A DNA stretch of 47,368 nt, taken from NCBI GenBank assembly GCA_900313795.1, contig OMSS01000001.1:1-47368 (forward strand), given 5' to 3'. Below, piece after piece: positions 2,201-21,756 of this stretch. The DNA is from an uncultured bacterium (GTDB lineage Bacteria > Cyanobacteriota > Vampirovibrionia > Gastranaerophilales > Gastranaerophilaceae). Numbering within the stretch: the stretch's first letter is position 1; each line of letters starts with the position of its first letter. Under the pieces are notes generated by a model. The model worked only from the letters and a program-made list of their open reading frames with translations, searched no databases and was not told the DNA's origin. The translations under genes and the position numbers were made by a program.

Positions 2201-3136
2201 ATGGCTTATAAAAGTTGCGAAGATAGTTTGCACACGATATGTTTTATGCCCGAGGGTTTGAGACATTGTATGTATATGATTCCTGAGAATGCACCTCCGG
2301 TTATTCCGATTTTTTCTAATCGACCTGTTGACCCTGAAATGGTGTTCGATTTGAAGTTTGAAATTGAAGAAATGAGAATGGACGGATATTTGCAATCAGA
2401 TTGCGAAAACTGTTTCCGTGCGTGTGTTAAGGACTTTGATAACGAAGATTATATCAACAAAGTTTTGATTTCTCATAAAATAGATTGTAACGCACATTGT
2501 TCGTTCTGTTATAACAAATATGCGGAAAATATTCGATACAATCCGTATAAAATTATGCCGCAATTAGAACAGTTCAAACCGTATTTCAAAAATTGCGAAA
2601 TGCATTTTGGTGGCGGCGAACCGACAATGTGGGACGAATTTGACGATATTGTTGACTTTGCGATAAAAGAAAGATTTAAGAAAATTTTTATTGCAACAAA
2701 CGGTTCAATCTATTCTGAAAAATTGGCTCAAGCAATCAAAATGGGTATGGCAGAACCTGTATTTACAACCGATACGGCTGATGCTGAGTTGTTTGCGAAA
2801 ATGAAGGGTTTGGATTTCAACGAAGTTACTGAAAATATCAAAAAATATCTCGAATGTGACGAAGAAAGAATCGCAGTCCGCAATAAATACCTGATTATTC
2901 CCGACGTAAACGACAACGAAGAATCAATCAGAAAATGGGTTGAATATAATGAAGAATTGGGCATAAAGAACCTCGCTATCGATATTGAGGCTATATTTTT
3001 CAATGAAAATCGTGGTCAAATTGATGAGAAATACAAAAAACTGGTACTTTTTGCAGAAAATTTAATCCTTGAAAAAGGCTTAAAATGCGATTTGTATAGT
3101 TTCGCATCTCAAATGAAATATGACGATAACAAATAA
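2201..3136 (+). CDS. radical SAM protein with an N-terminal Cys-rich extension
   Basis: CxxxCxxC motif 'CNAHCSFCYN', glycine-rich SAM motif 'HFGGGEPT', and an upstream Cys-rich segment 'ICFMPEGLRHCMYM...CENCFRAC'. Good RBS 'gaggtaaaaaatATG'. Confidence 0.75.
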   Translation: MAYKSCEDSLHTICFMPEGLRHCMYMIPENAPPVIPIFSNRPVDPEMVFDLKFEIEEMRMDGYLQSDCENCFRACVKDFDNEDYINKVLISHKIDCNAHCSFCYNKYAENIRYNPYKIMPQLEQFKPYFKNCEMHFGGGEPTMWDEFDDIVDFAIKERFKKIFIATNGSIYSEKLAQAIKMGMAEPVFTTDTADAELFAKMKGLDFNEVTENIKKYLECDEERIAVRNKYLIIPDVNDNEESIRKWVEYNEELGIKNLAIDIEAIFFNENRGQIDEKYKKLVLFAENLILEKGLKCDLYSFASQMKYDDNK

Positions 3137-8252: not shown

Positions 8253-9299
8253 TCAAGAAACAGTTGACAGAGGTCTTAGTTTTGCGTTAATATTGCAGTT
8301 TGGAGATTTAAAGATATCGTTGTTGATAACTTCAAGATATTTTGGATAATCGGGGTGAGTTGGTTCAAAAATCGCAACTTCATCATACCTTTTATCCAGT
8401 TCAACTTCGCCCCAAGTTCTGTATTCCCAGAAATTTGTAGTTGCACCAAGTTCGTTTGCAAGTTTTTGAAAATCTATCATTTCTTGATAATTGTAAGAAT
8501 TTACAACGAAATTTAGCCAAAAAAAGTCGAGTTTTCCTGATTTTTTCATTTCAGAAATGAATTTTAAATTTTCCATAAGCGTGTCGAAATTTCCGCCACG
8601 AACAATTTTTTCATAAGTTTCTTTGTGTGCTGAGTGCATCGAAACTTCGATGGATTGGACTTTTCCGAGCAAACCAATTTCTTCGAAATTTTTTGCATTT
8701 GCCAATAATCCGTTTGTGATTAAGTCAAATTTTATGTTCGGGTAAGTTGCGGTTATTTTTTTGACAAGTTTTTTGCATAAATTGCTCGCAAAAAGTTCGC
8801 CTGAGCCGTTCAAATAAACTGTTTCTGCGTTTTTTAACAACGGTATCAACGTCTTATCTATATTTTCTTCGTATTTTTTTATCCACTCTGTGTTATGAAT
8901 ACTTTTGTCACGACACATAATGCAGCGAGCGTTGCAGGTTTCATCGATGTTGAAGTGAACCATTTTAGGCAATTCTGTTACTTCTGCACTGTCATAAATC
9001 TTCTCGGAGTTAAAGCGGCCATCTTCTTTAAGATTTCTCGTAATACAAGATTTTAAATCGCAAAATTGATAATTTCCATCGAGAACAGATTGTCTGAAAG
9101 CCTTTGCTTTTTCGCCATTCCAGAGTTCTTCATAACTTTGGTCAAAGATATTTCCGAACGTGTATTTGTTTACGATTGCAGGACAGCACGAGTAAACTTT
9201 TCCGTCTTGAAAGAACATCAAATGTTCGAACGGAACAATACATTGGAGTTTTCTACCCAAATATTTTTCGGCATCTTTTATGATTTCTGTGTTATCCAT
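8253..9299 (-). CDS. radical SAM protein with a SPASM/twitch-like Cys motif at the N-terminus
   Basis: Core 'CNARCIMCRD' lies at about residue 122. It is preceded by 'QDGKVYSCCPAIVNKYTFGNIFDQSYEELWNG...CDLKSC', which resembles the normally C-terminal SPASM signature. Confidence 0.75.
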   Translation of the reverse strand: MDNTEIIKDAEKYLGRKLQCIVPFEHLMFFQDGKVYSCCPAIVNKYTFGNIFDQSYEELWNGEKAKAFRQSVLDGNYQFCDLKSCITRNLKEDGRFNSEKIYDSAEVTELPKMVHFNIDETCNARCIMCRDKSIHNTEWIKKYEENIDKTLIPLLKNAETVYLNGSGELFASNLCKKLVKKITATYPNIKFDLITNGLLANAKNFEEIGLLGKVQSIEVSMHSAHKETYEKIVRGGNFDTLMENLKFISEMKKSGKLDFFWLNFVVNSYNYQEMIDFQKLANELGATTNFWEYRTWGEVELDKRYDEVAIFEPTHPDYPKYLEVINNDIFKSPNCNINAKLRPLSTVS

Positions 9300-9375: not shown

Positions 9376-10047
9376 ATGAATGAACTACTTTTCATAGCCG
9401 AAGTGATTTTAAGTTTTTCAGGGGTACTTCTTGCACACAAATTTTTCGGGAAGTACGGCTTGTTTGCGTGGATTGCGATGAATACAATTATTGCGAATAT
9501 TGAAGTCGTTAAGTGTGTAGATATGTTTTCTATGCCAATGACACTTGGAAATATTACGTTTGGCAGTGTTTTTCTTGCAACGGACATTATTAATGAAAAA
9601 TATGGTAGAAAAGTTGCTCAAAAGGGCGTTTTTATTGGGTTTTTCTCGTTAATGACGTTGACTATTTTTACTCAACTTGATTTGTTGTATGTCCCTAATT
9701 CGGAAGATTTTGCCCAGCAATCAATGCAGACACTTTTCGCAATCACTCCGAGATTGTGTTTCGGAAGTATGTTTGCTTATTTGATTTCTCACACGACGGA
9801 GGTTTTTTTGTTTAGTACAATCAGAAAATTTCTTCCTGATGATAAATTTTTGTGGGTCAGAAACAATGTTGCGACGATTACAAGTCAACTTTTAGATACA
9901 ATTTTGTTTACATTCATAGCGTTTTTAGGCGTATTTCCTTTCAAAACGGTTGTAACGTTATGTTTAACAACTTATTTGATAAAGGTCGTTTTGGCGTTTT
10001 GCGAAACACCGTTTCTCTATGCCGCTAAAAGGATAAACAATGATTAG
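9376..10047 (+). CDS. yhhQ: queuosine precursor transporter (YhhQ/VUT family)
   Basis: Six-TM protein with the family-typical 'NITFGSVFLATDIINEKYGRKVAQKGV' and 'SQLLDTILFTFIAF' blocks. Confidence 0.8.
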   Translation: MNELLFIAEVILSFSGVLLAHKFFGKYGLFAWIAMNTIIANIEVVKCVDMFSMPMTLGNITFGSVFLATDIINEKYGRKVAQKGVFIGFFSLMTLTIFTQLDLLYVPNSEDFAQQSMQTLFAITPRLCFGSMFAYLISHTTEVFLFSTIRKFLPDDKFLWVRNNVATITSQLLDTILFTFIAFLGVFPFKTVVTLCLTTYLIKVVLAFCETPFLYAAKRINND

Positions 10048-10510
10048 TTATTATTCTCAAGAAACAAAGATTGGAAAGTTTACAATTTTTGAAGAAAATG
10101 GTGCAATTATAAGGGCTGTTTTTCCTGTTTTAAGTGTGTCAACTAATGGTTGTCGTTATGCTAAAACACTTGCTATTACTGAGGCTTTTAAACAACTGAC
10201 GGAGTTCCTTGACGGAAAAAGAACTGTTTTTGATTTGAAATTAGAACCAAAAGGAACGCCGTTTCAAAAGAGAGTTTGGGCGGAACTTATGAAAATCCCG
10301 TATGGTAAAACTGTTTCATATCAAGACATTGCGGTTGCAATCGGAAACTCGAAGGCATGCCGTGCCGTTGGATTGGCAAACAACAAAAATCCTATACCAA
10401 TTTTTATTCCGTGTCATAGAGTAATCGGTAACAACGGCAAAATGGTTGGTTATGCGGGTGGTTTAGACTGCAAAAAATCTTTGCTCGAGATTGAACAAGT
10501 TATTCAATAA
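10040..10510 (+). CDS. ogt: methylated-DNA--protein-cysteine methyltransferase
   Basis: Active site 'IPCHRVIG', plus 'TPFQKRVWAELMKIPYGKTVSYQDIA' and 'RAVGLANNKNPIPIFIP'. Overlaps yhhQ by 8 nt. Confidence 0.9.
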   Translation: MISYYSQETKIGKFTIFEENGAIIRAVFPVLSVSTNGCRYAKTLAITEAFKQLTEFLDGKRTVFDLKLEPKGTPFQKRVWAELMKIPYGKTVSYQDIAVAIGNSKACRAVGLANNKNPIPIFIPCHRVIGNNGKMVGYAGGLDCKKSLLEIEQVIQ

Positions 10511-12053
10511 CGTTTAATCTTCCGTCTTTTTCTGCTTTTAATTCTCCTTTTTGTTTAATTTGTTCAATGAAAATTTCTTGTTGATTTCCAACTTTTGGAG
10601 ATGTTTTAACGTCCTTTAAAATGCTTGCGAGAGTAGACTCTTTGAACAAAAACTTGTTCATTGCACATTTGACGATTTTAGATTCATCTGGATTTAGGGT
10701 ATCAAATTTTCTCACTACGTTTCCATTTTTGTCCAAAATGCAGACATCATGTACACAAAGAGCATCTTTTTTTGCATCAGATTTGTTAATTGTATATTTC
10801 ATTCCCGCACAATGTAAAACTTGCGAAAGGTCTTTTGTGATAATCGTTTTAGATTCTGTGTTAAGCAAATCAACGAATTGTTTTTCATTTAATTCTGCAA
10901 CGACCACATCGTCATCGTAAGGAAGCATACGATATTTTATGTCGTAAGTTGTTATTTTGCCTGAAATTCCTGATGATTTCATACTTGGAGCATTGAAGAA
11001 AGCAACTTCTACACAGTATTTCTGTCCACGTCTTAACATTCCGTCTGCAAGTATTGAGGCAACTGGGTTTTCGGCTTTTCTTTCATCGTCTTCGCAACTT
11101 GGTAAAAAAGGTACGGTAACAGGGGCAATGACTTCATTTTTGCCCAGTGATTTTGCTAAAATTCTGTCAATTTTTTTAGAATCGGGATATTTTTCAAGTT
11201 TCACCAATTTATTTTGGATTTTATCTTCGATTAAGACACCTTTTTTGTCAAAAAGCACATCGAGATAACCAGCATTTGTGTTGTCACTGCCTGCTTGGGT
11301 AATAATTACAGGCTCTAAACGTAAAGATTTTACTAAATTTTTCTTTGATTTTGCGTTATCTTCTTTGTTTACACCGTCGAGTGCATCATGGGTGTGACCA
11401 CCAATTATGACGTCGATACCGCCTGTTTTAGTTGCGATTTGCAAGTCGCTATCGTATCCGCTGTGGCTGAGAAGAATAATCTTATTAACCCCTTTTGCTT
11501 CTAACTTTTCGACCTCTTGGTTTAAAACAGCAATCGTTTCATCAAGTGTCATAACGGAAACTTTATTGTCCTTGTCAGCGGTCCCAATATCCTTGTCTGA
11601 TGGGCTTGTTCCAAGAATTGCAAATCTTGTTCCTTTTTTCATAAAAACATCGCTTTTGACAAGTTTTTTGTCCTGCAAACGTTCGCTCAGAGGGTTTTTT
11701 GCAGGTAAATTAATATTTGAAACGACTGTTGTGAATTTTGCATTTTTAATATTGTTTGCATAAAATGCCGAACCGGCATCGTATTCGTGGTTTCCTGCGG
11801 TTGCATAGTCTAGTTTAAGGGCATTATAGATTTTTGTCATTGCAGAATTTCTACCCTTATTGCCGCCAAGGTACAAATCGCCCGCACCAACTGTCAAACC
11901 ACCTTTTTTATTATGTTTTTTGAACTTGTCATGGGCTGGTTTGAGTTTGCTCACTTTGGTGACATTTCCGTGAGTATCATTTATGTAAAATACTGTTATT
12001 TGTGTGTTTCCAAGGTTTTGTTGCGGTATAAAATCTTGCGGGCAGTAATCCAT
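10500..12053 (-). CDS. bifunctional metallophosphatase / 5'-nucleotidase (UshA/CpdB-like), no signal peptide
   Basis: Calcineurin-like motifs 'INDTHG', 'GDLYLGG', 'GNHEYD', 'LSHSG', 'GGHTHD', plus a C-terminal 5'-nucleotidase domain. The N-terminus 'MDYCPQDFIPQQ' is not signal-like. Confidence 0.85.
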   Translation of the reverse strand: MDYCPQDFIPQQNLGNTQITVFYINDTHGNVTKVSKLKPAHDKFKKHNKKGGLTVGAGDLYLGGNKGRNSAMTKIYNALKLDYATAGNHEYDAGSAFYANNIKNAKFTTVVSNINLPAKNPLSERLQDKKLVKSDVFMKKGTRFAILGTSPSDKDIGTADKDNKVSVMTLDETIAVLNQEVEKLEAKGVNKIILLSHSGYDSDLQIATKTGGIDVIIGGHTHDALDGVNKEDNAKSKKNLVKSLRLEPVIITQAGSDNTNAGYLDVLFDKKGVLIEDKIQNKLVKLEKYPDSKKIDRILAKSLGKNEVIAPVTVPFLPSCEDDERKAENPVASILADGMLRRGQKYCVEVAFFNAPSMKSSGISGKITTYDIKYRMLPYDDDVVVAELNEKQFVDLLNTESKTIITKDLSQVLHCAGMKYTINKSDAKKDALCVHDVCILDKNGNVVRKFDTLNPDESKIVKCAMNKFLFKESTLASILKDVKTSPKVGNQQEIFIEQIKQKGELKAEKDGRLNVIE

Positions 12054-12067
12054 TTTGTCCTCTTTCT

Positions 12068-13087
12068 TTATCGTTTAATTTTTGGCGATTTGAGCCATTT
12101 ATTATGTTCTTTCATATCTTGGTACATATAGCAATGACTGCAAGGTATTTCGGGGTTTTCAGGGGCATTATTTATGACCATGTTTTTTGCGTAAATTATT
12201 TTTGGATTGTTCATTGCGGTTAAAAACCCTTCAGTGAAAGCATTTCCGCCAAAATCGTCCGTAAATAATGAACAGCAGCCCAAAACTTTGCCGTCCCAGT
12301 TGATTTGTGGTTCTTCCCACAAAAATGCACAATAATACCAGTCCAAAAGGCCCTGTTCATACTCTTCGAGCAATTTATGAGGGGGAAGTTCGACACTTGG
12401 CATGCCCGTTTGTTCTATTACTTTTTGAGGATTTTTTACGGGAGAAAAATCGGGATAGGTATTTTGTTCAAAAACGATTTCCATATCGAGATTTTTTGCC
12501 AAAATTTTTGCTTGTTCAATTTCGTGTTCATTATGCCCGAAAACGATGAATTTGTAGTACATCACAGGGTATTTTGAGTTATATTTTTGTTTATAAAAAT
12601 TGATTTTTTTGATATTTTCAATGACTTTGTTGAAGTCCCCATTTTTGCGGTAAATTTTATATGTTTCTTGGCTTGCACCGTCGATTGAGACATAAACTCT
12701 CTTTACGCCACATTTTACGAGTATTTCAGCCATTTTATCAGAAAGGTAGTTTAAGTTTACACCATTGTCCATTGACAGTGCAATTCCTTTTGTGGTGGCG
12801 TATTCGATTATTTTGTCTAATTCGGGATTTAGAAAAACTTCGCCGTGATTTGAGAGTTCAATCGATTCAAAATCATTTTCATCAATAAATTTTTTGAAGT
12901 CATCAAACTTCAAATTGCCCAATCTGCAACCATTTTCGACCCCTTCTTTGTCCATTCGCATGTAGCATCTTTCGCAATCGAGTTGGCATTTTGTGCTTGC
13001 ATCAATGCGAACTTTTTTCGGCAATTCCGATTTGTCGTGATAAATTTCTCCAAGATATTTTTCTTCCAAAATGATTTTATTGCTCAT
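12068..13087 (-). CDS. radical SAM protein with C-terminal SPASM/twitch-like domain (paralog B)
   Basis: 'CQLDCERCYM' cluster motif. C-terminal 'WDGKVLGCCSLFTDDFGGNAF...PCSHCYMYQ'. Roughly 55-60% identical by eye to the upstream gene. Confidence 0.75.
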   Translation of the reverse strand: MSNKIILEEKYLGEIYHDKSELPKKVRIDASTKCQLDCERCYMRMDKEGVENGCRLGNLKFDDFKKFIDENDFESIELSNHGEVFLNPELDKIIEYATTKGIALSMDNGVNLNYLSDKMAEILVKCGVKRVYVSIDGASQETYKIYRKNGDFNKVIENIKKINFYKQKYNSKYPVMYYKFIVFGHNEHEIEQAKILAKNLDMEIVFEQNTYPDFSPVKNPQKVIEQTGMPSVELPPHKLLEEYEQGLLDWYYCAFLWEEPQINWDGKVLGCCSLFTDDFGGNAFTEGFLTAMNNPKIIYAKNMVINNAPENPEIPCSHCYMYQDMKEHNKWLKSPKIKR

Positions 13088-14084
13088 TTTTTGCCCTCGG
13101 GGATTTTAGCCAAACGTTGTGTTTTTGCATATCTTGATATATTTCGCAGTCAAAACAGGGGATTTTTTTATTTGGTGCGACTTTATTTGTTACCATATTT
13201 TTTGCATAGAGAAAATCAGGGTGGTTTAATGTTTCAAAAAGCCCATCTTTAAAGACATTTCCGCCAAAATTTCTTTTGTAATTTGCACAGCAGCCCAAAA
13301 GTTGCCCGTCCCAGTTAATTTGTGGTTGCCAAAGATCGTTGCAATAAAACCAATCGACTTCGCCATTTTCAAATTGTTTCAGTAACTCAACAGGGGATGC
13401 ATTTGTTGTCAAAGAGTTCAATCCTGTCTGTTCAAGCACTTTTTGAGGATTTTTGACTGGAGAAAAATTTTCGTCCCAATTAGTTGCAAATTTTATTGCC
13501 ACACCCAATTTTTTTGCCTCAATTTTCGCTTGTTCAATTTGGTGTTCATTATGCCCGAAAACGATGAATTTCCAAGTGATATGCGGGCAACCGTTGCTAT
13601 ATTTTTGCCTATAAAAAATAATTTTTTTGATATTCTCGATGACTTTGCCGTAATCTCCACCAACACGGTATTTTTCGTATGTTTCTTGACTTGTGCCGTC
13701 AATCGAGACTGTCATTGAAATGACGTGATATTTTGCAAGTGCCTCAGCCTGTTTGTCGGTGATGTAATTTAGGTTAACACCGTTATCTGCAGTGACTTTC
13801 ACCCTTTTTTTATCTGCGTATTCTAAAATTTTTACCAAATCAGGGTTCAAAAAAATCTCGCCACTATTTGAAATTTCGATATTCTCAAGTTCATTTTCAT
13901 CAAGCAGTTTTTTGAAATCTTCAAACTTCAAATACCCGAAACCGCAACCATTTTTAGCATTTTCTTCATCTGTTCTCATATAGCAAACGGGGCATTTTAA
14001 CTGACAAATACTGCAAACTTCCACCCTTAAACGTTTTGGAAGTTCTGATTTGTCTTTATAAATTTCTGCATCTTTTTCAAACAT
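13077..14084 (-). CDS. radical SAM protein with C-terminal SPASM/twitch-like domain (paralog A)
   Basis: 'CQLKCPVCYM'. C-terminal 'WDGQLLGCCANYKRNFGGNVF...PCFDCEIYQ'. Overlaps paralog B by 11 nt. Confidence 0.75.
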   Translation of the reverse strand: MFEKDAEIYKDKSELPKRLRVEVCSICQLKCPVCYMRTDEENAKNGCGFGYLKFEDFKKLLDENELENIEISNSGEIFLNPDLVKILEYADKKRVKVTADNGVNLNYITDKQAEALAKYHVISMTVSIDGTSQETYEKYRVGGDYGKVIENIKKIIFYRQKYSNGCPHITWKFIVFGHNEHQIEQAKIEAKKLGVAIKFATNWDENFSPVKNPQKVLEQTGLNSLTTNASPVELLKQFENGEVDWFYCNDLWQPQINWDGQLLGCCANYKRNFGGNVFKDGLFETLNHPDFLYAKNMVTNKVAPNKKIPCFDCEIYQDMQKHNVWLKSPRAKNEQ

Positions 14085-14139
14085 TTATAAAACCCACAAT
14101 ATCAAACGCTCTGCCTTTTTTGCCTTTTGGACAAGTTTG

Positions 14140-15585
14140 TTATTCTGCTCTTTGTTTTTTGAACAAATCCCAAACAAACAAAATGTAGTTTTTGAATTTT
14201 TTCGGGTCTCTGTATGTTTCTGCAATCGTTCTGAAGAAATATCTCGGGCTTGCGTAGTACAAGAAAAGAGTTTTCTTTCTGAAATCTTTGAGTTTTTTAT
14301 GAGTTAAAAATTTCGTGCCTAATGCAGGAATTTTAATCGTTTCATTTTCAAAAAGCGATTCTCTCAAAATATTTTCATCACGGAAATTCTTTTCGACAAC
14401 CGAATCTGGGTACGCAACGGGGAATGTTAACGAAAGCAAATCCGGACATATTTTCAAAATCAATTTTTTCGTTTCCGCAAGGTGAGATTCCGTTTCCCAC
14501 GGCAAACCTACTGAGAACAAGCCGAAAATTTTGAGTTTATGTTTTCTTGCAATGTCAACAGTGTTGATACTTTCATCGACTGAAAATCTTCTGTCCAAAC
14601 GAACAAGGGTGTCGTCTGAGCCGCTATCGAAACGTACGACAATCATTGAACAATTAGCATTTTTCATCTCCATTGCCATATATTCTGTGAAAGATGCAAC
14701 GTTTACGTTCGCAATCCAGTCAACATGCCCGTTCATCGGTGATTCGATGATGTAATCACAAAATTCTTCAACCCATTTTTCATTGTGGTTAAAAGTGTCT
14801 GACGGGAAGTAAAAATTGGTGATACCGTATTTTTGGTAACATTCATACATTTCGTCAAAAACTTTTTTAGCAGGACGAACATTCATTGTTCCATCTGCCA
14901 AAACAGGTTCTTTGCAATGTAAACAAGTGTATGGACAGCCTTTTGCCGTGATAATTGTTGCAATAGGTTTTTTGTTGTCGGGGCGAACATATTTTTCGTT
15001 CTGCATCAAATCTCTTGCTGGGAACGGCAAATCGTTTATATTTCCATGCGGTGCGTGGAAGTTTGTTTTGTGCATCATACCGTTTTTGCAAATCGTGATA
15101 AACGGCACTTGATAAAGCATTTCGGGGGTTTCATAATGTGCTTGAACCAACAAAGGCATTACAAACGCAGCATCAGAACCAATTAAATAATCCACTCCGC
15201 CCATCGGCAAACTGCATAAAAGTTCTTCAGAAGCATCAAAAAACATATCGCTTTTCAAGATAATTACGATTTGAGGATTTGAGGATTTAATCATTCTGAC
15301 CAATTTCAAATCTTCAAAAATGTTTGCGATATCCGTTTTAAAAAGCAACATATCCGGACAATTTTTCAATACGTCGTCGAGCAAGTCGAGTGCGGTTTTG
15401 CGTTCGATTTTGTAATCTTTTAAAACGACTTCGTGACCTGCATTTTGCAACATTGCCGCAATATAGCCCAAATCATTGCATGCTCTCATTGAGTGAGGAA
15501 CAATGTCTGAAGTTCTGTATTTGTATCTGTTCTTAATATTTACCGATAAGTCCCCTGGGGGGCTGCAAAGCATTATTTTTTTCAT
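14140..15585 (-). CDS. B12-binding-domain (class B) radical SAM protein
   Basis: N-terminal Rossmann-like B12-binding region 'LGYIAAMLQNAGHEVVLKDY', then the radical SAM core 'KGCPYTCLHCKEP'. The 481-aa length is typical of the class. Confidence 0.8.
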   Translation of the reverse strand: MKKIMLCSPPGDLSVNIKNRYKYRTSDIVPHSMRACNDLGYIAAMLQNAGHEVVLKDYKIERKTALDLLDDVLKNCPDMLLFKTDIANIFEDLKLVRMIKSSNPQIVIILKSDMFFDASEELLCSLPMGGVDYLIGSDAAFVMPLLVQAHYETPEMLYQVPFITICKNGMMHKTNFHAPHGNINDLPFPARDLMQNEKYVRPDNKKPIATIITAKGCPYTCLHCKEPVLADGTMNVRPAKKVFDEMYECYQKYGITNFYFPSDTFNHNEKWVEEFCDYIIESPMNGHVDWIANVNVASFTEYMAMEMKNANCSMIVVRFDSGSDDTLVRLDRRFSVDESINTVDIARKHKLKIFGLFSVGLPWETESHLAETKKLILKICPDLLSLTFPVAYPDSVVEKNFRDENILRESLFENETIKIPALGTKFLTHKKLKDFRKKTLFLYYASPRYFFRTIAETYRDPKKFKNYILFVWDLFKKQRAE

Positions 15586-15623
15586 AATATTCGGTCACCG
15601 AATTTTCCAATACGTTCACTTTT

Positions 15624-15652
15624 GTGACAATTTTAATGAAAAAAAATATAAA
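15624..15652 (+). promoter_or_regulatory. candidate promoter for mutS2
   Basis: GTGACA (15624-15629), a 17-nt spacer, then TATAAA (15647-15652), within the 107-bp divergent intergenic region. Confidence 0.3.
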
Positions 15653-15692
15653 AAACAAGATATACTAAGTTATTTGTCATATAATTAATTAC

Positions 15693-18059
15693 ATGAAACC
15701 TGTAATTGAAGTAACGGAATTTGACAAAGTAAGAGAATATATATCCGAAAACGCAATCACTGAGCCTGGAAGGCTTAGAACTTTGAGTGCGGAAATTTTT
15801 GACGATGCGGAAAAAATTCGAGAACAATTAACCTGCACAACTGAGGCAAGAAGGTTGTGCGATATGAATTTACGCTTGCCGTTGGAAAATTTTTCCGATT
15901 TGACAAGTTCTCTTAAAGATGCAAAAGCCAGAATTAAACTTTCGCCGCAAGAAATTTGGGATATCGCAAATCTTCTCAGAAATTCAAGACTTGTGAAAAA
16001 TTTTCTCGACAAAAATGCCGAAGATGCTCCAAAATTGGCTGAAATTAGTGCTAATCTTTTTGTCCTGAAAGAACTTGAGGACAAAATTTTTGATACTTTA
16101 GGTAGCGATATGAAGGTTAAAGAAAGTGCTTCATCAGAATTAAAACGTCTCTATGGTGCACTCTCAGACACTCATGCAAGTATTAAATCCACAATTACAA
16201 GATTGCTCTCGGATTCGAATTTTACAAATGATTTGCGAGACACAATCTACACTCAGCGTGATGGCAGAACCGTTTTCGGGGTTAAGGCTGAGGCAAAAAA
16301 CAAAATTTTGGGCATCGTACACGACGTTTCCGCCTCTGGGCAAACGTTTTTCATCGAACCGAAAGATTTGACCGAACTTCACAACCGTGAACGTGAAATC
16401 GAAATTCATATCCAAATTGAAACTGACCGAATTTTGAAAGTTTTTTGTGAAGAAATTGGTAGACACTTCGACGAACTCATTGCGACACAAGATGTTTTGG
16501 CAGAAATAGATTTCCATTTTGCAAAAGGAAAATATTCTCAAAAAACTGAAAGTTCTCCTGCAATTATTCTTGATGAACCGAAAATTGACTTGAGAGCAAT
16601 GAAAAACCCAGTGTTGATGAGGGTTTGTGATAACGTCATCGAGAACGATTTCAATGCAGGAAAAGACAATCTTTGCACAATTATTACAGGTTCTAATACA
16701 GGTGGAAAAACAGTCGTATTAAAGACTGTGGGGCTTTGCGTATTGATGAGCAAAGCAGGATTTCACATTCCCTGTTTGAGTGCAAAAATCTATCCGTTCA
16801 AAAAAGTTTTTGCCGATATCGGTGACCAACAAAACATTATTCAAAGTTTGTCGACGTTTTCTTCACACATCAAAAACCTTGTCGAAATGAGCAATCAAGC
16901 CGATAGAGATACTTTGATTTTGATAGATGAAATCTGCTCAGGAACTGATCCTGCCGAAGGTTCGGCACTCGCAAGAGCATTGTTGCAATATTTTGTTGAA
17001 AAACAGGCGTTTTGCGTTGTCACGACACACTTTGGCGACTTGAAAAATCTTGCACTCGAAGGTAGCGGATTTGAAAATGCAAGCGTTAGATTTGACACTG
17101 AAACCTTGAAGCCTACATATCGCTTTACTCAAGGAGTTTCTGGCAGCAGCAATGCAATTACGATTGCGGAAAATTTGGGCTTAAATTCTGAAATCATTGG
17201 CAATTCAAGAGAAATTTTCACTGAAACATCGGGCAAAAATATTGAAAAATTTGCCAAAATCGAAGAAATGTGGGAAGAAGCCGCCAAAAAAGCAGACGAG
17301 GCAAAAAAAGAGGCAGAAGTCGCAAAAGCATTGAGGTTGCAACTTGAAAAGCAGGCTGATGATTTGAAAAAAGAAAAACGGAAAATCATTGCGGAATACA
17401 AGAAGAAAACACAGACAGCGTTTGATTCTGCACGAGATGAAATTAAAGATGTTTTGAAAAATCTTCGTGAAAACGAAAATCGTGAAAACACAATGAAAAC
17501 AATACGGAAGAATACTTTAATCCGCAAAAAACTCCACGATAAACTTGATGAAGAATACGAGTCTTTGAGAGAAGAATATCGTGATATTGACATAAATTCA
17601 ATCGTCAAGGGCGATAAGGTCATAATTCGTGACTTAAATCAAGAGGCTGAGTTTGTTGGTTTTACGGATAAATGCAAAAAGGCTATAATCCTTATGGGTG
17701 CTGTAAAAACGACACTTCCTGTCAAGAAACTTGCTATGTATGACAAAGATGTTGTCAAACCAAAAGTGAAGCCGCTCGTTCAACGGAAACAGGCTGTCGA
17801 GTTCGTCAAACACGATGTTTCGTACACTTTGGACTTGCGTGGATATAGATACGAAGAGGCTATGGACGAGGTTGAAGCGTATCTTGATAAGGCTTGTGCA
17901 GCGGGACTTTCGTACGCAATTATCATTCACGGGCATGGAACTGGCGTTTTGAAAAAGGCGATTCGGGAATATCTTGCGGACAGTCCTTATGTCGCAAAAT
18001 TCCGCCCAGGAGAAGATGTTGAGGGCGGAGACGGAGTCAGTGTGGTGGATTTGAACTGA
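15693..18059 (+). CDS. mutS2: endonuclease MutS2 (MutS domain V ATPase plus C-terminal Smr)
   Basis: Walker A 'ITGSNTGGKTVVLKT', 'STFSSH', Walker B 'LILIDEICSGTDP', a K/E-rich coiled coil, and the Smr domain 'LDLRGYRYEEAMDEVEAYLD...IIHGHGTGVLK'. Confidence 0.92.
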   Translation: MKPVIEVTEFDKVREYISENAITEPGRLRTLSAEIFDDAEKIREQLTCTTEARRLCDMNLRLPLENFSDLTSSLKDAKARIKLSPQEIWDIANLLRNSRLVKNFLDKNAEDAPKLAEISANLFVLKELEDKIFDTLGSDMKVKESASSELKRLYGALSDTHASIKSTITRLLSDSNFTNDLRDTIYTQRDGRTVFGVKAEAKNKILGIVHDVSASGQTFFIEPKDLTELHNREREIEIHIQIETDRILKVFCEEIGRHFDELIATQDVLAEIDFHFAKGKYSQKTESSPAIILDEPKIDLRAMKNPVLMRVCDNVIENDFNAGKDNLCTIITGSNTGGKTVVLKTVGLCVLMSKAGFHIPCLSAKIYPFKKVFADIGDQQNIIQSLSTFSSHIKNLVEMSNQADRDTLILIDEICSGTDPAEGSALARALLQYFVEKQAFCVVTTHFGDLKNLALEGSGFENASVRFDTETLKPTYRFTQGVSGSSNAITIAENLGLNSEIIGNSREIFTETSGKNIEKFAKIEEMWEEAAKKADEAKKEAEVAKALRLQLEKQADDLKKEKRKIIAEYKKKTQTAFDSARDEIKDVLKNLRENENRENTMKTIRKNTLIRKKLHDKLDEEYESLREEYRDIDINSIVKGDKVIIRDLNQEAEFVGFTDKCKKAIILMGAVKTTLPVKKLAMYDKDVVKPKVKPLVQRKQAVEFVKHDVSYTLDLRGYRYEEAMDEVEAYLDKACAAGLSYAIIIHGHGTGVLKKAIREYLADSPYVAKFRPGEDVEGGDGVSVVDLN

Positions 18060-18991
18060 TGAAAGAAAACTTAAATTTTAAAACAAAAAATACAAACATC
18101 AGTTTGACTGCATATAGAGCGATAAAAATTTTGAAACTTTTAATGGAAAAACCGTCTACAAGTGCCGAAATCATTGAAGTTTTGAAACAAGATGAGTTGA
18201 CAATGCGGTCGGTTTCCGATGATACTTTGCGAGTGACGATGAATTCTCTGAAAGCGGTCGGTTGTAAGATTGCACGCCCATGTCCGAAAAATAATTATCA
18301 TTATATTTTGACAGAACACCCATTTCGGGCAAAATTTTTAGCACCCGAGATTAATGTTTTGATGCAGATAAGGCAATATTTTTTGGATAGTTGCCAATGG
18401 CGTACCGTTATTGGGTTAAACAATTTTTATGACAAAATAATTGCTTCTCATTGCGATGTTGAAAATGTTGATTTGCTCAACAAAAATCGCCCGTTTGCGA
18501 AGGTTCGAGCGAATATTTTGAAAACTTTTTATGAAAAAGATTTGGGCAAAAAAGAAATTTTGATGACTTATGCAACCTCGTCAAAAAAGATTGAAAAGAT
18601 TAATATTTCAAGCGAACGAGTTTTTTGCGAAGCGGGCAAATTGTACGTACTCGGTTGGTATTACAAGCGAAACACCTGTTCTTATTTCAATGCGGAAAAA
18701 ATATTGGAAATTCATTCTATTGAACCCAAAAAATTAACAGAAACCCTTGAAAATAAAGTGTTGTATAAGGTTACGGGTGATGAGGCACTGACTTTCAGAT
18801 GTAATTCTGATGAAAGAATTCTTGAACAAACAGAAAAAGAAATAACGGTTGAATGTACTGCAATGAGCGAGTTTAAGATTGTTCAGAGATTGCTTTCGTT
18901 TGGTTGTGATTTTGAACTTATTTCGCCGATGTATTTAAAAAATCATTTGCTTGAAAAATTGTCCAAAATCAAAGCGAGGTACGAACAATGA
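18059..18991 (+). CDS. HTH-WYL-WCX transcriptional regulator (PafB/PafC-like architecture)
   Basis: N-terminal wHTH 'AYRAIKILKLLMEKPSTSAEIIEVL', WYL-type core 'GKLYVLGWYYKRNTCSYFNAEKILEI', and a C-terminal extension 'IVQRLLSFGCDFELISPMYLKNHL'. The ATG shares 1 nt with the mutS2 TGA. Confidence 0.7.
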   Translation: MKENLNFKTKNTNISLTAYRAIKILKLLMEKPSTSAEIIEVLKQDELTMRSVSDDTLRVTMNSLKAVGCKIARPCPKNNYHYILTEHPFRAKFLAPEINVLMQIRQYFLDSCQWRTVIGLNNFYDKIIASHCDVENVDLLNKNRPFAKVRANILKTFYEKDLGKKEILMTYATSSKKIEKINISSERVFCEAGKLYVLGWYYKRNTCSYFNAEKILEIHSIEPKKLTETLENKVLYKVTGDEALTFRCNSDERILEQTEKEITVECTAMSEFKIVQRLLSFGCDFELISPMYLKNHLLEKLSKIKARYEQ

Positions 18992-19884
18992 CCTATGTCG
19001 CAAAACATCACGATTCTTGCGTTAGAGTTTTGGAATTCTTGAAACTTTTGACGAAAGAAGATATCGATATAAAAGAATTAGAATATGGTCGGAAATTCAA
19101 GGATATCGAAGCCCCTGAAACGTTTTTGAAGTATATTTCCACGCTTGAAACATCAGAAATTGATGTGAGAAAAATTGGCAAAAAATATTCTCTTTGTAAA
19201 TTTCCTGAAGAACTTGAACTCAAAGACGAAGAAATTAACCTCATAAGTATTATTTGTAAGGCTTTTGATGCTTGTTGTCTTGAAAAAAACAGAGTTTTCT
19301 TGGAAAGTTTTTTGTCAAAACTCCAAAAATCTTTGACGCAAAATTCAAGAGAAAAATTGTTTTCAAAAATAGAATATTTAAAAAATTCTGCTTCAAACAA
19401 CAATATTGCAGAAGTTGCAAACAATTTCCAACAATACGTTGATTTGGCTCAAAAATTGAAAATTACTTATGATGGCAAAACGGCAATCGTTATACCGAAA
19501 AAGGTCGAAATTTATGAAGATAGAGTGATTTTAGATGTTTATAATCCTAAAACTGCTGAAAATTTCAAACTTTTGACCCAAAATATCGAAAATATTGAAA
19601 TTCTTCCCGTTCGTGCAATTCAGTCGAGTAATATGACAAATTCGGTCGTGTTTACTGTTTATGGCAGATTGGTCGTGAATTACCGTTTGCGTGATTGCGA
19701 AAGAGTTCAGACTTTTAACGATGATGAAAAAGTTATCATAAATACGGGCGAGGATAAAAAATCTTTGCTCAAAAGGCTTATGAAATATGGGGAAAACTGT
19801 AAAATTATGTCCCCGAAATTTATGCAGCAAGAAATGCTTGACGAACTTCAAAAGGTTGAGGATAAATTAAGAGGAGTTAAATGA
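18988..19884 (+). CDS. second, diverged HTH-WYL-like protein
   Basis: Same overall layout: 'CVRVLEFLKLLTKEDIDIKEL' (HTH-like), 'DRVILDVYNPKTAENFKLLTQNIENIEIL' (WYL-like beta core without the WYL triad), and 'LLKRLMKYGENCKIMSPKFMQQEM' (WCX-like). ATGA overlap with the upstream gene. Confidence 0.5.
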   Translation: MTYVAKHHDSCVRVLEFLKLLTKEDIDIKELEYGRKFKDIEAPETFLKYISTLETSEIDVRKIGKKYSLCKFPEELELKDEEINLISIICKAFDACCLEKNRVFLESFLSKLQKSLTQNSREKLFSKIEYLKNSASNNNIAEVANNFQQYVDLAQKLKITYDGKTAIVIPKKVEIYEDRVILDVYNPKTAENFKLLTQNIENIEILPVRAIQSSNMTNSVVFTVYGRLVVNYRLRDCERVQTFNDDEKVIINTGEDKKSLLKRLMKYGENCKIMSPKFMQQEMLDELQKVEDKLRGVK

Positions 19885-21287
19885 TGAAAAAAATCGGTTT
19901 CCTTCCGATAGATAATCGCCCTGTTTGTTATGATTTGCCTAAAATGATTGCAAATATTGATTCAGAGGTCAAAATGTATCTTCCGCCAAAAAATCTTTTG
20001 GGTTCGCTGACAAGAAATGCCGACAGAAATGCACTTTTCGAATGGCTAGAAGATTTGAACGATGTCGATTACCTCGTAATATCAGTAGATACGCTCATTT
20101 ACGGTGGTTTGATACCGTCAAGAAGAAGTTCTGATACGAAAGATGAAATCGAAAATCGACTTTTGAAGTTGAGAAATATTTTGCTCAAAAAAGCAAACTG
20201 CAAAACACTCATTTTTTCAAGCATAATGCGTATTTCGAATAATAATTGCAATGAAGAAGAAAAAGAATATTGGGCAGATTTTGGGAAGAAAATTTTTGAA
20301 TATTCTTTTGAACTTCATCGTTCGGAAATCGAGGGAAACCGCTCCGCTAAAGAAAAAGCGACCCAAGTTGCCAAAGAAATTCCGTCTGAAATTTTGATTG
20401 ACTGGTTGTCTACTAGAGAAAGAAATTTTTCTGTCAATAAAGAATACGTCAAAATGTTTGATGACGGCATTTTTGACACTTTGATTTTTTCAAAAGATGA
20501 TTGTGCAAAGTATGGCTTTAATGTCAAAGAGGCAAAATATTTCGAATTTTTGGCTCAAACACGAAAGGGTATGTTTGTTAAAACAGGGGCTGATGAAATC
20601 CCTCTAACCTTGCTATCACGCTGCATTTCAGACGGAAAAAAGATTAAAATGGCCCCAATTTATACAAATCCTGATGAGGTCGATAAAATTTCAAAATACG
20701 AGGACGTTTCGGTGAAGAAGTCTGTTGAATCGCAAATTTTGACGGCAGGCGGAAGCGTTTCTTCGCCCGATGAAGCCGACTTGATTTTGTATGTGAATAA
20801 CTTTAAGGGCGAACAGGGTGAACTCGTCATGAACGTTGATACAGAACCTTTTGACGGGGAGTTTGCTCATTTTGACAAACCATATTTTGTTGTTGATATT
20901 TTGAATGCAAATGGTGCGGATAATAAATTTGTTGAAAAAATGTTTGAAAACGGTATAAATGGGTACTTTTACGGATATTCTGCTTGGAATACGACGGGAA
21001 ATTCCTTGGGATCTGGAATTGCTGCTGCGGTGACGAAATTTTTGGCAAAAAATCCTGATGAGAATGCTTTTAAAAAATTGCAAACGGTTAGATTTCTTGA
21101 TGATTGGGCGTATCAGGCAAATTTGAGAAAAGAATTTAAACGGGAAAACTTGATGGACTTGAACGAGATTAAGAATCGATTTTCTAGATATGAAAAAGAA
21201 GTCGCAAAGGCTTTGAACGTGGATACTTCTAAAATTTCGTATTTTTTCCCTTGGGATAGATTTTTCGAAATTGAAGTGAAAATATAA
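19881..21287 (+). CDS. DUF4127 family protein (function unknown)
   Basis: I recognise these blocks as the DUF4127 (PF13552) family: 'GFLPIDNRPVCY', 'ISVDTLIYGGLIPSRR', 'GADEIPLTLLSR', 'YGYSAWNTTGNSLGSGIA', 'FFPWDRFFE'. ATGA overlap with the upstream WYL-like gene. Confidence 0.65.
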   Translation: MMKKIGFLPIDNRPVCYDLPKMIANIDSEVKMYLPPKNLLGSLTRNADRNALFEWLEDLNDVDYLVISVDTLIYGGLIPSRRSSDTKDEIENRLLKLRNILLKKANCKTLIFSSIMRISNNNCNEEEKEYWADFGKKIFEYSFELHRSEIEGNRSAKEKATQVAKEIPSEILIDWLSTRERNFSVNKEYVKMFDDGIFDTLIFSKDDCAKYGFNVKEAKYFEFLAQTRKGMFVKTGADEIPLTLLSRCISDGKKIKMAPIYTNPDEVDKISKYEDVSVKKSVESQILTAGGSVSSPDEADLILYVNNFKGEQGELVMNVDTEPFDGEFAHFDKPYFVVDILNANGADNKFVEKMFENGINGYFYGYSAWNTTGNSLGSGIAAAVTKFLAKNPDENAFKKLQTVRFLDDWAYQANLRKEFKRENLMDLNEIKNRFSRYEKEVAKALNVDTSKISYFFPWDRFFEIEVKI

Positions 21288-21293
21288 TAAATT

Positions 21294-21332
21294 GGATTCT
21301 TCGGTCTTTTACAAGACCTCAGAATGACGAAG
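21294..21332. repeat. hairpin repeat, copy A (GGATTCTTCG...CTCAGAATGAC type)
   Basis: ggATTCTtcggtcttttacaagacctcAGAATgacgaag. Outer stem is ATTCT/AGAAT and the inner hairpin is ggtctt/aagacc. Related copies lie at 25153-25265 and 35969-36006. Confidence 0.5.
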
Positions 21333-21363
21333 TTTCTGATTTTTTACGGTTGCAGATGATATT

Positions 21364-21453
21364 ATTTGCGACAACGAGAGCAAATTGCCAGTTCGATGTC
21401 TCAAAACAAAAAAACTTCCCGAAGGAAGTTTAAAAATGGACGAGAAGAGACTC
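21364..21453. repeat. 90-bp direct repeat, copy 1 (tRNA-Leu 3' fragment, terminator and downstream hairpin)
   Basis: Identical to 21520-21609 apart from one mismatch (g/a at 'aattGcc' versus 'aattAcc'). Period is 156 bp. It contains the last 17 nt of tRNA-Leu (21437-21453) without the rest of the tRNA. Confidence 0.85.
21405..21432 (-). terminator. intrinsic terminator (duplicated copy)
   Basis: On the minus strand: aacttcc-TTCG-ggaagtt followed by a T-run. This is a UUCG tetraloop hairpin. Confidence 0.6.
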
Positions 21454-21519
21454 CCCTGAATCGTAGGCGAACTAACGAGAGCCGTACGAGTCAGGATACC
21501 CGTAGGGTAGAACTCCGTA

Positions 21520-21609
21520 ATTTGCGACAACGAGAGCAAATTACCAGTTCGATGTCTCAAAACAAAAAAACTTCCCGAAGGAAGTTTAAAAATGGACGAG
21601 AAGAGACTC
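21520..21609. repeat. 90-bp direct repeat, copy 2 (overlaps the 3' end of the intact tRNA-Leu)
   Basis: See copy 1. Here the 17-nt segment 21593-21609 is part of a complete tRNA. Confidence 0.85.
21561..21588 (-). terminator. intrinsic terminator of the tRNA-Thr/tRNA-Leu unit
   Basis: 7-bp stem with a UUCG loop and a T-run, immediately 3' of tRNA-Leu on the minus strand. Confidence 0.7.
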
Positions 21610-21672
21610 GAACTCTTACACCGAAGGCGCCAGTTCCTAAGACTGGTGCGTCTACCATTCCGCCACTCGTCC
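21593..21672 (-). tRNA. tRNA-Leu (anticodon UAG)
   Basis: Reverse complement GGACGAGTGGCGGAATGGTAGACGCACCAGTCTTAGGAACTGGCGCCTTCGGTGTAAGAGTTCGAGTCTCTTCTCGTCCA folds as a class II cloverleaf. Acceptor GGACGAG/CTCGTCC, anticodon stem CCAGT/ACTGG with loop CTTAGGA, long variable arm, T arm AAGAG-TTCGAGT-CTCTT. Confidence 0.85.
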
Positions 21673-21683
21673 ATAAAAAGAAA

Positions 21684-21756
<73 letters not shown>

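Follow-up and report, generated by a model that had tools for sequence, protein, structure and literature searches.

A four-gene block of radical SAM enzymes and a 5′-nucleotidase in an uncultured Gastranaerophilales bacterium is a recent juxtaposition of separate units

Do the three radical S-adenosylmethionine (rSAM) enzyme genes and the 5′-nucleotidase gene that lie head to tail in an uncultured Gastranaerophilales bacterium encode a single pathway? The genes occupy positions 10500-15585 on the minus strand of a 47,368-nt stretch of DNA, contig OMSS01000001.1 of assembly GCA_900313795.1, which is here called the window. In the order of the block they are a B12-type rSAM gene (14140-15585, 481 aa), the twitch-type rSAM genes A (13077-14084, 335 aa) and B (12068-13087, 339 aa), whose products are 57% identical, and a Metallophos/5′-nucleotidase gene (10500-12053, 517 aa). 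Comparison with related loci, numbered from L001 onwards, reveals that the block is a recent, lineage-specific juxtaposition of three separate units and not a conserved four-step pathway. The reading that we favour, with confidence a little better than even, is a patchwork in which an AprD4-like rSAM enzyme and a dispensable twitch-type pair, both probably devoted to sugar or glycan tailoring, lie beside an unrelated core nucleotidase.

Within the window, the block has many features of an operon. The gaps between consecutive genes, from the B12-type gene to the nucleotidase gene, are 55 nt, −11 nt (an overlap) and 14 nt in the open reading frame (ORF) list, exactly as given in a preliminary description of this DNA, and Pfam agrees with the gene identities proposed there (a B12-type rSAM enzyme, two rSAM paralogues and a UshA-like phosphoesterase). 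B and the nucleotidase gene are each preceded by a Shine-Dalgarno-like sequence, and no terminator-like site was found on the coding (minus) strand inside the block. The 107-nt intergenic region (15586-15692) between the B12-type gene and the divergent mutS2 gene (15693-18059, plus strand) is the presumed promoter region of the block and contains a promoter-like sequence (minus strand, 15630-15602) recognized by consensus match alone. The four genes are probably co-transcribed in the window; as for RNA evidence, only 20% of the sampled words were present in one run and none in three metatranscriptomes. Since the order B12-type-A-B-nucleotidase also occurs in two related genomes, L013 and L028, as well as in L051, which is the window's own contig, it is a real arrangement and no assembly accident. 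The CxxxCxxC motif is intact in all three rSAM proteins. None of the four proteins, the three rSAM proteins included, reaches a curated NCBIfam cut-off, in line with the preliminary description, which could match the gene set to no characterised pathway. Its observation that the gaps are too short for the precursor ORF of a ribosomally made, post-translationally modified peptide (RiPP) was also confirmed, both for the gaps and for the sequence next to the block. The closest relatives of the window, whose GC content is about 36%, are gut metagenome-assembled genomes labelled Melainabacteria or Gastranaerophilales.

To delimit the conserved part of the block, we collected the genes orthologous to that of the 481-aa protein (53-95% identity) together with their flanks and mapped the loci by tblastn. 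Wherever an orthologue locus is long enough to tell, the B12-type gene is divergent from mutS2, two hypothetical genes (h310 and h298) and a DUF4127 gene, in this order; it belongs to the core genes of Gastranaerophilales and has a fixed place beside mutS2. Downstream of it the loci diverge. Genes A and B followed by the nucleotidase gene are found in the window, L013, L028 and L051 (B12-type gene 91-100% identical); a single B-type gene and then the nucleotidase gene in L018 (95%) and L052; and the nucleotidase gene directly, with neither A nor B, in L020 (86%). A GDSL esterase gene takes this place in L001-L003 and L023 (64%) and in L053, L055 and L056, the longer loci of this group additionally containing two A-to-B pairs, a glycosyltransferase family 2 (GT2) gene and an rSAM-SPASM gene. 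A convergent A/B pair of a second type (A2/B2) follows in L025 (58%), and a GDSL-like gene in L027 (61%), where one B-type gene lies 5 kb off. No A/B gene occurs downstream in L004, L005, L021, L022 and L024 (62-65%), of which L004 and L005 have an HSP20 gene, and in L006 and L007 (53%) a pilin-like and a MiaB-like gene are found. In sum, the four-gene adjacency is kept only in L013, L028 and L051 and is broken in L018, L020, L052, L001-L012 and L021-L027.

Copy number of A/B genes varies even within the genus-level clade of the window, with two copies in L013 and L028, one in L018 and L052 and none in L020, and the four genes therefore do not form an obligate pathway. The loss can be followed in the DNA itself: in L018 and L052 the 200 nt that separate the B12-type gene from the remaining rSAM gene retain the 5′ end of an A gene that has been deleted, about its first 30 codons (L018 11444-11641; L052 9806-9990), where the sequence reads ...YKNKSELLKNFRVEISAF... 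compared with IYKDKSELPKRLRVEVCSI in A. In L052, this remnant causes the gene call to lend B a spurious N-terminal extension of 51 aa. The A/B pair sits at a seam between two conserved blocks and is undergoing loss within the genus.

The nucleotidase gene belongs to the other side of this seam. Its product has the Metallophos and 5_nucleotid_C domains along with the motifs for metal binding (DxH, GD, GNHE and GHTH) that characterize UshA, CD73 and the Thermus thermophilus 5′-nucleotidase 2Z1A, the last being its best Protein Data Bank (PDB) match (1.7e-29). Unlike UshA, it has no signal peptide, a claim of the preliminary description that holds by inspection: the N-terminus MDYCPQDFIPQQNLGNTQITVFYINDTHGN presents neither a hydrophobic h-region nor a lipobox context, and the ORF cannot be extended upstream. 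It also scores far under all NCBIfam equivalog cut-offs. Orthologues with 56-74% identity lie beside genes for pyruvate kinase (L008/9), RNase HII (L010) or trmFO (L011/12), and no A/B-family or B12-type gene was detected within about 8 kb of them in L008-L012. In L011/12 the nucleotidase gene is convergent with trmFO, and next comes the ParA-like gene that is also present in the window, where trmFO lies a few genes past the nucleotidase gene. These contexts devoid of A/B and B12-type genes, together with the trmFO adjacency, assign the nucleotidase to a trmFO-side block and the B12-type gene to a mutS2-side block. The protein is most likely a core cytoplasmic 5′-nucleotidase/UshA-family phosphoesterase unrelated to the radical enzymes. 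An unrelated rSAM array is located 3 kb from the nucleotidase gene in L010.

What might the B12-type enzyme do? Pfam assigns it Radical_SAM (51.6 bits) and a B12-binding domain (28.4 bits, under the gathering score of 32.1), and its cluster motif, GC217PYTC221LHC224, is intact. The best NCBIfam match is HpnJ (99 bits, cut-off 578), AprD4 (NF033070) scores 77 versus 500, and methylase families also stay below their cut-offs: PhpK 78/600, HpnR 55/650, MgmA-type 38/360 and Trp methyltransferase 26/500. Against PDB sequences, AprD4 is the best match both by phmmer (E = 6.6e-17) and by profile search (E = 7e-33), in which the next hit, MgmA (1.7e-23), is ten orders of magnitude worse. Foldseek with the AlphaFold model (mean predicted local distance difference test [pLDDT] score of 88.1) also returns AprD4 first (E = 1.7e-23, template-modelling [TM] scores of 0.73/0.77), followed by MgmA, TsrM, CysS, OxsB and TokK. 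Since these matches, superposing the predicted fold full-length on AprD4, TsrM, OxsB, TokK and CysS, cover the entire protein, the class B architecture is real.

AprD4 is a radical SAM 1,2-diol dehydratase that carries out C3′-deoxygenation in apramycin biosynthesis, is reported to work without cobalamin and pairs with the reductase AprD3. Like the 481-aa protein, AprD4 (PDB 6FD2) combines an N-terminal B12-binding-like Rossmann domain with an rSAM barrel in approximately 450-480 aa, and relatives of the 481-aa protein that are fused to or adjacent to short-chain dehydrogenase/reductase (SDR)-type reductases offer a parallel to the AprD4/AprD3 couple. However, identity in the structural alignment is only about 18%, the AprD4 family score is far below its cut-off, as given above, and the window contains neither an aminoglycoside cluster nor an adjacent reductase gene; a partner NAD(P)H reductase gene was found as a fusion or neighbour in distant clades only, and none in the window. 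The cobalamin-dependent class B radical SAM methyltransferases TsrM, TokK, CysS, MgmA, PhpK and HpnR share the two-domain architecture, form the second tier of fold matches (TM 0.6-0.7) and give partial NCBIfam matches, but AprD4 is more similar than any of them, their equivalog cut-offs are not nearly reached and nothing points to methyl transfer. No sequence motif is diagnostic of cobalamin binding. Judged by profile and predicted fold, the nearest characterised chemistry of the 481-aa enzyme appears to be sugar diol dehydration, not methylation.

Among the mutS2-linked orthologues, three, all full-length, have lost the CxxxCxxC cysteines: L006 (8125-9561), which reads GNNKDCLYNE at this position, and L026 (646-2082) and L027 (10001-11437), which read GHSSDSIY... 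The L026 and L027 proteins are 72% identical, with a ratio of nonsynonymous to synonymous substitution rates (dN/dS) of about 0.10, a value obtained with dS near saturation. The three proteins are candidate pseudo-rSAMs, and such conserved orthologues deprived of cysteines would provide a natural example of a pseudo-rSAM protein.

More distant relatives of the 481-aa protein are found in informative contexts. A second clade, with 29-38% identity and a strictly conserved GCPxxCxYC motif, is represented in Gastranaerophilales by a gene that, in most of the loci showing the upstream side, has a CTP_transf_1 (CdsA-like) gene as its divergent neighbour. Clade-2 loci include L017, L030-L034, L037, L038 and L047-L049, with the gene at about 9.1-12.5 kb in full-length loci; a convergent rSAM-SPASM gene and a gene for a methyltransferase often come after it. 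Elsewhere, clades with 30-36% identity adjoin UbiA-family genes. In L016 (9021-13386), a UbiA gene is followed by an rSAM::SDR fusion and a glycosyltransferase family 4 (GT4) gene, and the UbiA protein scores 251.7 with the NCBIfam model of decaprenyl-phosphate phosphoribosyltransferase, above the cut-off of 234. L035 (9968-13498) has the order rSAM, UbiA, GT87, and L043 (7554-12547) the order epimerase, small EamA protein, UbiA, rSAM, epimerase, while L014/15, from Lachnospiraceae, is a cluster for cell-wall glycan that includes UbiA, HAD hydrolase, GT2, PMT_2, DUF2142 and MBOAT genes.

This organization recalls the decaprenylphosphoryl-ribose 2′-epimerase system of the mycobacterial arabinan pathway, in which the flavoenzyme DprE1 and DprE2, a member of the SDR class, act together with the UbiA-family protein Rv3806c. 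The B12-type relatives in L016, L035 and L043 are likewise accompanied by a phosphoribosyltransferase homologue, an SDR of the DprE2 class and glycosyltransferases, and these UbiA/rSAM/SDR modules are, by analogy, candidates for an oxygen-independent counterpart of DprE1/DprE2. The differences are that an rSAM protein replaces the flavoenzyme DprE1, that the arrangement is limited to the 30-36%-identical clades and that the window gene has no UbiA or SDR neighbour. The resemblance would accordingly apply to the relatives, and we do not carry it over to the window gene. The literature searches brought up no paper that ties DprE1-type chemistry to rSAM enzymes; the sole paper containing both terms concerns RiPP leader peptides.

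Genes A and B, the upstream and downstream partners of their pair, belong to a large family for which literature searches, like those on the B12-type family, found nothing. Pfam detects Radical_SAM in both proteins, SPASM below threshold in B (19.9 versus 21.5) and no SPASM in A. The family-invariant cysteines (B numbering) are C34/C38/C41 and C253/C271/C316/C319, with C272 near-invariant; the four C-terminal ones are consistent with one auxiliary [4Fe-4S] cluster, as in twitch-like domains, and not with a seven-cysteine SPASM. The model of B (pLDDT 93.5) is nearest to SkfB, BlsE, SuiB, DesII, viperin, MoaA and EpeE with TM scores of 0.5-0.6, a generic likeness that indicates no substrate. The sole PDB sequence match of B, the tetraether synthase GDGT-MAS (1e-5), extends over the core only and was judged uninformative, and MSS and Ger, from a paper on bacterial membrane lipids (PMC13159169), are different proteins from the rSAM enzymes described here. 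Sugar-acting enzymes of the BtrN, HygY, BlsE and DesII type have an rSAM core and a short C-terminal domain, as do A and B with their four invariant cysteines, and B counts BlsE and DesII among its top fold matches, in keeping with the sugar context that the fusions described below suggest for A/B. Nevertheless, TM scores are low, identities are 12-17% and the NCBIfam BlsE score is 30 against a cut-off of 400. Moreover, these enzymes act on small molecules in antibiotic pathways, whereas the A/B family is distinguished by fusions to polysaccharide glycosyltransferases and by A-to-B pairs.

A neighbour-joining tree separates four old subclades, A1, B1, A2 and B2, and the A-to-B order is kept in each pair. 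The window contains A1B1, L001 both pairs and L025 A2B2, and A of the window groups with L001 17084-18133 and L054 8920-9966. The family extends beyond Gastranaerophilales, with more than 463 relatives in the metagenome collection and 357 representative clusters at E ≤ 1e-30. Many members are long fusion proteins, among them proteins of 1,824-1,838 aa encoded at L086 2498-7972 and L087 9986-15502, in which an A/B-type rSAM domain (45% identity to B) is joined to an FkbM methyltransferase and to GT4, GT2 and GT4 domains. Both giant genes lie inside a polysaccharide cluster with an ABC-2 transporter of the Wzm/Wzt type, UDP-glucose dehydrogenase, an AsnB-like protein and GtrA. Among 64 long A/B members, Pfam identified GT2 in 8, GT1/GT4 in 6, and GT8, GT28C and Nucleotid_trans in 2 each, as well as WbsX, GT7, TylF, other methyltransferases, polysaccharide deacetylase, UDP-GlcNAc 2-epimerase and cupins. 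A local check of 33 family proteins of at least 520 aa found GT2 or GT4 in at least 11. The 25 most frequent Pfam families listed for the 64 long members comprise no peptide-binding or RiPP-related family and no RiPP recognition element (RRE)/PqqD domain, and Pfam finds no such domain in A or B either. The neighbours of A/B genes in L063 and L078 encode GT2, epimerase and GlmS-like proteins, and GT2 and GDSL genes stand alongside the A/B paralogues of L001. We also clustered the neighbours of 80 metagenomic A/B loci and analysed 20 immediate neighbours with Pfam. A universal glycan-cluster context was rejected, as stand-alone homologues have no conserved partner, and the sugar assignment consequently rests on the fusions and on a subset of clusters.

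Are the two rSAM families linked to each other? Among loci picked via the B12-type gene, four of six informative lineages have A/B genes downstream of the mutS2-linked B12-type gene at a distance of no more than 6 kb, and there is no A/B match in approximately 293 kb of control Gastranaerophilales loci. In addition, L059 (211-5931) has a clade-2 B12-type gene (35% identity) followed by four tandem A/B genes on one strand. This co-location supports a functional link, although the variable stretch behind the B12-type gene may simply be a hotspot.

Taken together, these observations suggest how the patchwork might operate, the substrate class and every chemical step being what we infer. The rSAM enzymes would tailor sugars of cell-envelope glycans or of their activated precursors, either nucleoside diphosphate (NDP)-sugars or polyprenyl-phospho-sugars. 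The AprD4-like enzyme could abstract a hydrogen atom from a vicinal diol of the sugar, leading to dehydration or to oxidation to a keto-sugar, an intermediate that in relatives would be reduced by the fused or adjacent SDR-type reductase. Hydrogen abstraction by the A/B pair on sugar residues could bring about epimerisation, dehydrogenation or formation of C-C bonds, and the nucleotidase would most likely perform independent housekeeping in nucleotide or NDP-sugar turnover.

Several points weigh against this patchwork of sugar-tailoring enzymes. Neither rSAM family has a characterised member, so that the substrate class is assigned through guilt by association, and in the window no gene for a glycosyltransferase, UbiA or SDR was found near the block. 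Recognisable glycosyltransferase domains occur in only about one third to one half of the long A/B fusions, and the stand-alone environmental homologues mostly have heterogeneous, uninformative neighbours. Synteny breaks in the region that follows the B12-type gene, and the proximity of A/B genes could reflect a flexible hotspot. Purifying selection on the cysteine-less orthologues implies that the conserved role of the B12-type protein may not be radical chemistry. As for the nucleotidase, its gene directly adjoins the B12-type gene in L020; together with the tight spacing and the lack of internal terminators, this adjacency still allows a functional tie specific to the genus. UDP-sugars are among the substrates hydrolysed by UshA-family enzymes.

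A broader proposal, which is possible and for now tentative, is that both rSAM families are part of an uncharacterised, oxygen-independent toolkit with which anaerobes make unusual sugars (epimerised, deoxygenated or C-branched) for their cell-envelope polysaccharides. The UbiA and rSAM::SDR modules would then amount to a radical version of the DprE1/DprE2 route to polyprenyl-phospho-arabinose, of which the Gastranaerophilales trio in the window would be a reduced form.

Other explanations were weighed against the patchwork. A complete lack of shared function, in which A and B landed in a recombination-prone gap and the B12-type protein is non-catalytic or has an unrelated role, would account for a content after the B12-type gene that differs in every lineage, for the loss of A/B within the genus and for cysteine-less orthologues that remain under purifying selection. 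We regard it as unlikely, given the enrichment of A/B genes near the B12-type gene compared to the control loci and the independent array of L059. Maturation of a RiPP whose precursor is encoded elsewhere, with the B12-type enzyme as C-methylase and the twitch enzymes as epimerases or crosslinkers in a proteusin-like manner, could be argued from SkfB, SuiB and EpeE among the top folds of B, from peptide maturases among the best partial NCBIfam matches and from the tandem multi-copy rSAM arrays of L059 and L001. One environmental A/B neighbour (L068) encodes a nitrile-hydratase beta-subunit protein, and RiPP leader peptides of the nitrile-hydratase-like type are known (PMC12537861). This explanation is improbable: the block has no precursor ORF in or beside it and no protease or exporter gene nearby, A and B lack the RRE/PqqD domain, the 25 most frequent families listed for long members include none related to peptides, and fusions are to glycosyltransferases. 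Modification of membrane lipids, at tails or head groups, for example by methylating acyl or isoprenoid chains or joining them through C-C coupling, seems improbable as well. The GDGT-MAS match of B and the HpnJ match of the B12-type protein, which would recommend it, span the generic rSAM core alone and fall far under cut-offs. The clade-2 gene is indeed divergent from a CdsA/CTP_transf_1-family gene and UbiA neighbours are lipid-carrier enzymes, but the latter class as polyprenyl-phosphate phosphoribosyltransferases, that is, sugar-carrier chemistry, and A/B proteins are fused to glycosyltransferases and sugar methyltransferases.

The preliminary description had proposed a dedicated four-step nucleotide pathway comprising C-methylation by the B12 enzyme, two further radical steps and a final dephosphorylation by the nucleotidase. 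The operon on which it was founded stands insofar as the genes are tightly packed on one strand, with Shine-Dalgarno sites and no internal terminators, and keep their order in L013 and L028; furthermore, the nearest folds of B include the nucleotide-acting viperin and MoaA and the nucleotide-sugar-acting DesII and BlsE. However, the block is not one conserved unit, since A/B genes number two, one or none within the genus while the B12-type and nucleotidase genes persist. The description had itself named a non-conserved nucleotidase adjacency as evidence against the pathway, and the adjacency is missing outside one genus, orthologues of the nucleotidase lying in unrelated contexts. B12-type and A/B genes are indeed found close together in several Gastranaerophilales lineages. 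Nothing specific speaks for C-methylation, since AprD4, the characterised protein closest to the B12-type enzyme, is a dehydratase and no methylase, and in place of a phosphorylated small molecule or nucleotide, the contexts of both rSAM families and the glycosyltransferase fusions of A/B proteins point to sugars and envelope glycans. Overall, we consider this pathway very improbable.

The novelty of this locus lies in uncharacterised enzyme families, not in an operon. The proposed operon would lead annotation and pathway mining astray, as the nucleotidase, the feature that sets it apart most, is a bystander. The A/B proteins make up a sizeable twitch-rSAM family that has no characterised member, and their repeated fusions to glycosyltransferases point to radical chemistry on polysaccharides. 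The AprD4-like clade associated with polyprenyl-phosphate phosphoribosyltransferases and SDRs would give anaerobes an oxygen-independent means of remodelling pentoses linked to lipids. The two leads are relevant to the construction of cell surfaces by anaerobes, the uncultured Melainabacteria of the gut among them.

The surroundings of the block call for a few additional remarks. On the mutS2 side, the order mutS2-h310-h298-DUF4127 (window 15693-21287, plus strand) is kept in all orthologue loci of the 53-95% clade; h310 and h298 (310 and 298 aa) have no Pfam match above threshold and no NCBIfam match. On the nucleotidase side lie ogt, a queuosine-precursor transporter gene of the Vut_1/YhhQ family, an rSAM gene of N-terminal-twitch-like type, trmFO and a gene for a ParA-like response regulator. 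This rSAM protein (8253-9299, minus strand) carries its SPASM/twitch-like domain N-terminally and scores 72 bits with NF033640 (N_Twi_rSAM; cut-off 170), and the divergent transporter gene (9376-10047, plus strand) scores 175.6 bits with TIGR00697 (cut-off 51). The pair is kept in L013, L018, L020 and L028. Queuine lyase of the rSAM type exists, and the two genes may constitute a queuosine-salvage pair. A functional tie of the four-gene block to the transporter and Ogt was put aside, as these genes are on the opposite strand and in the trmFO-side block. In L020 (1184-3239), two additional tandem paralogues of the N-terminal-twitch rSAM gene (38-40% identity) are located upstream of the DUF4127 gene.

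With a further rSAM gene at 2201-3136 (plus strand, 311 aa), the first 16 kb of the window contain five rSAM genes. This gene, also present in L013, follows genes for a MalK-like ATP-binding cassette ATPase and a histidine kinase, and its product has sub-threshold matches only, glycyl-radical-enzyme activases among them. Positions 21592-21756 (minus strand) contain genes for tRNA-Leu(tag) and tRNA-Thr(cgt), and a 121-aa ORF (21309-21674) that overlaps tRNA-Leu is probably spurious. Finally, L019 and L020 are labelled "uncultured Muribaculaceae bacterium", yet display the Gastranaerophilales mutS2/B12-type synteny at 86-91% identity, which indicates that these bins are probably mislabelled.

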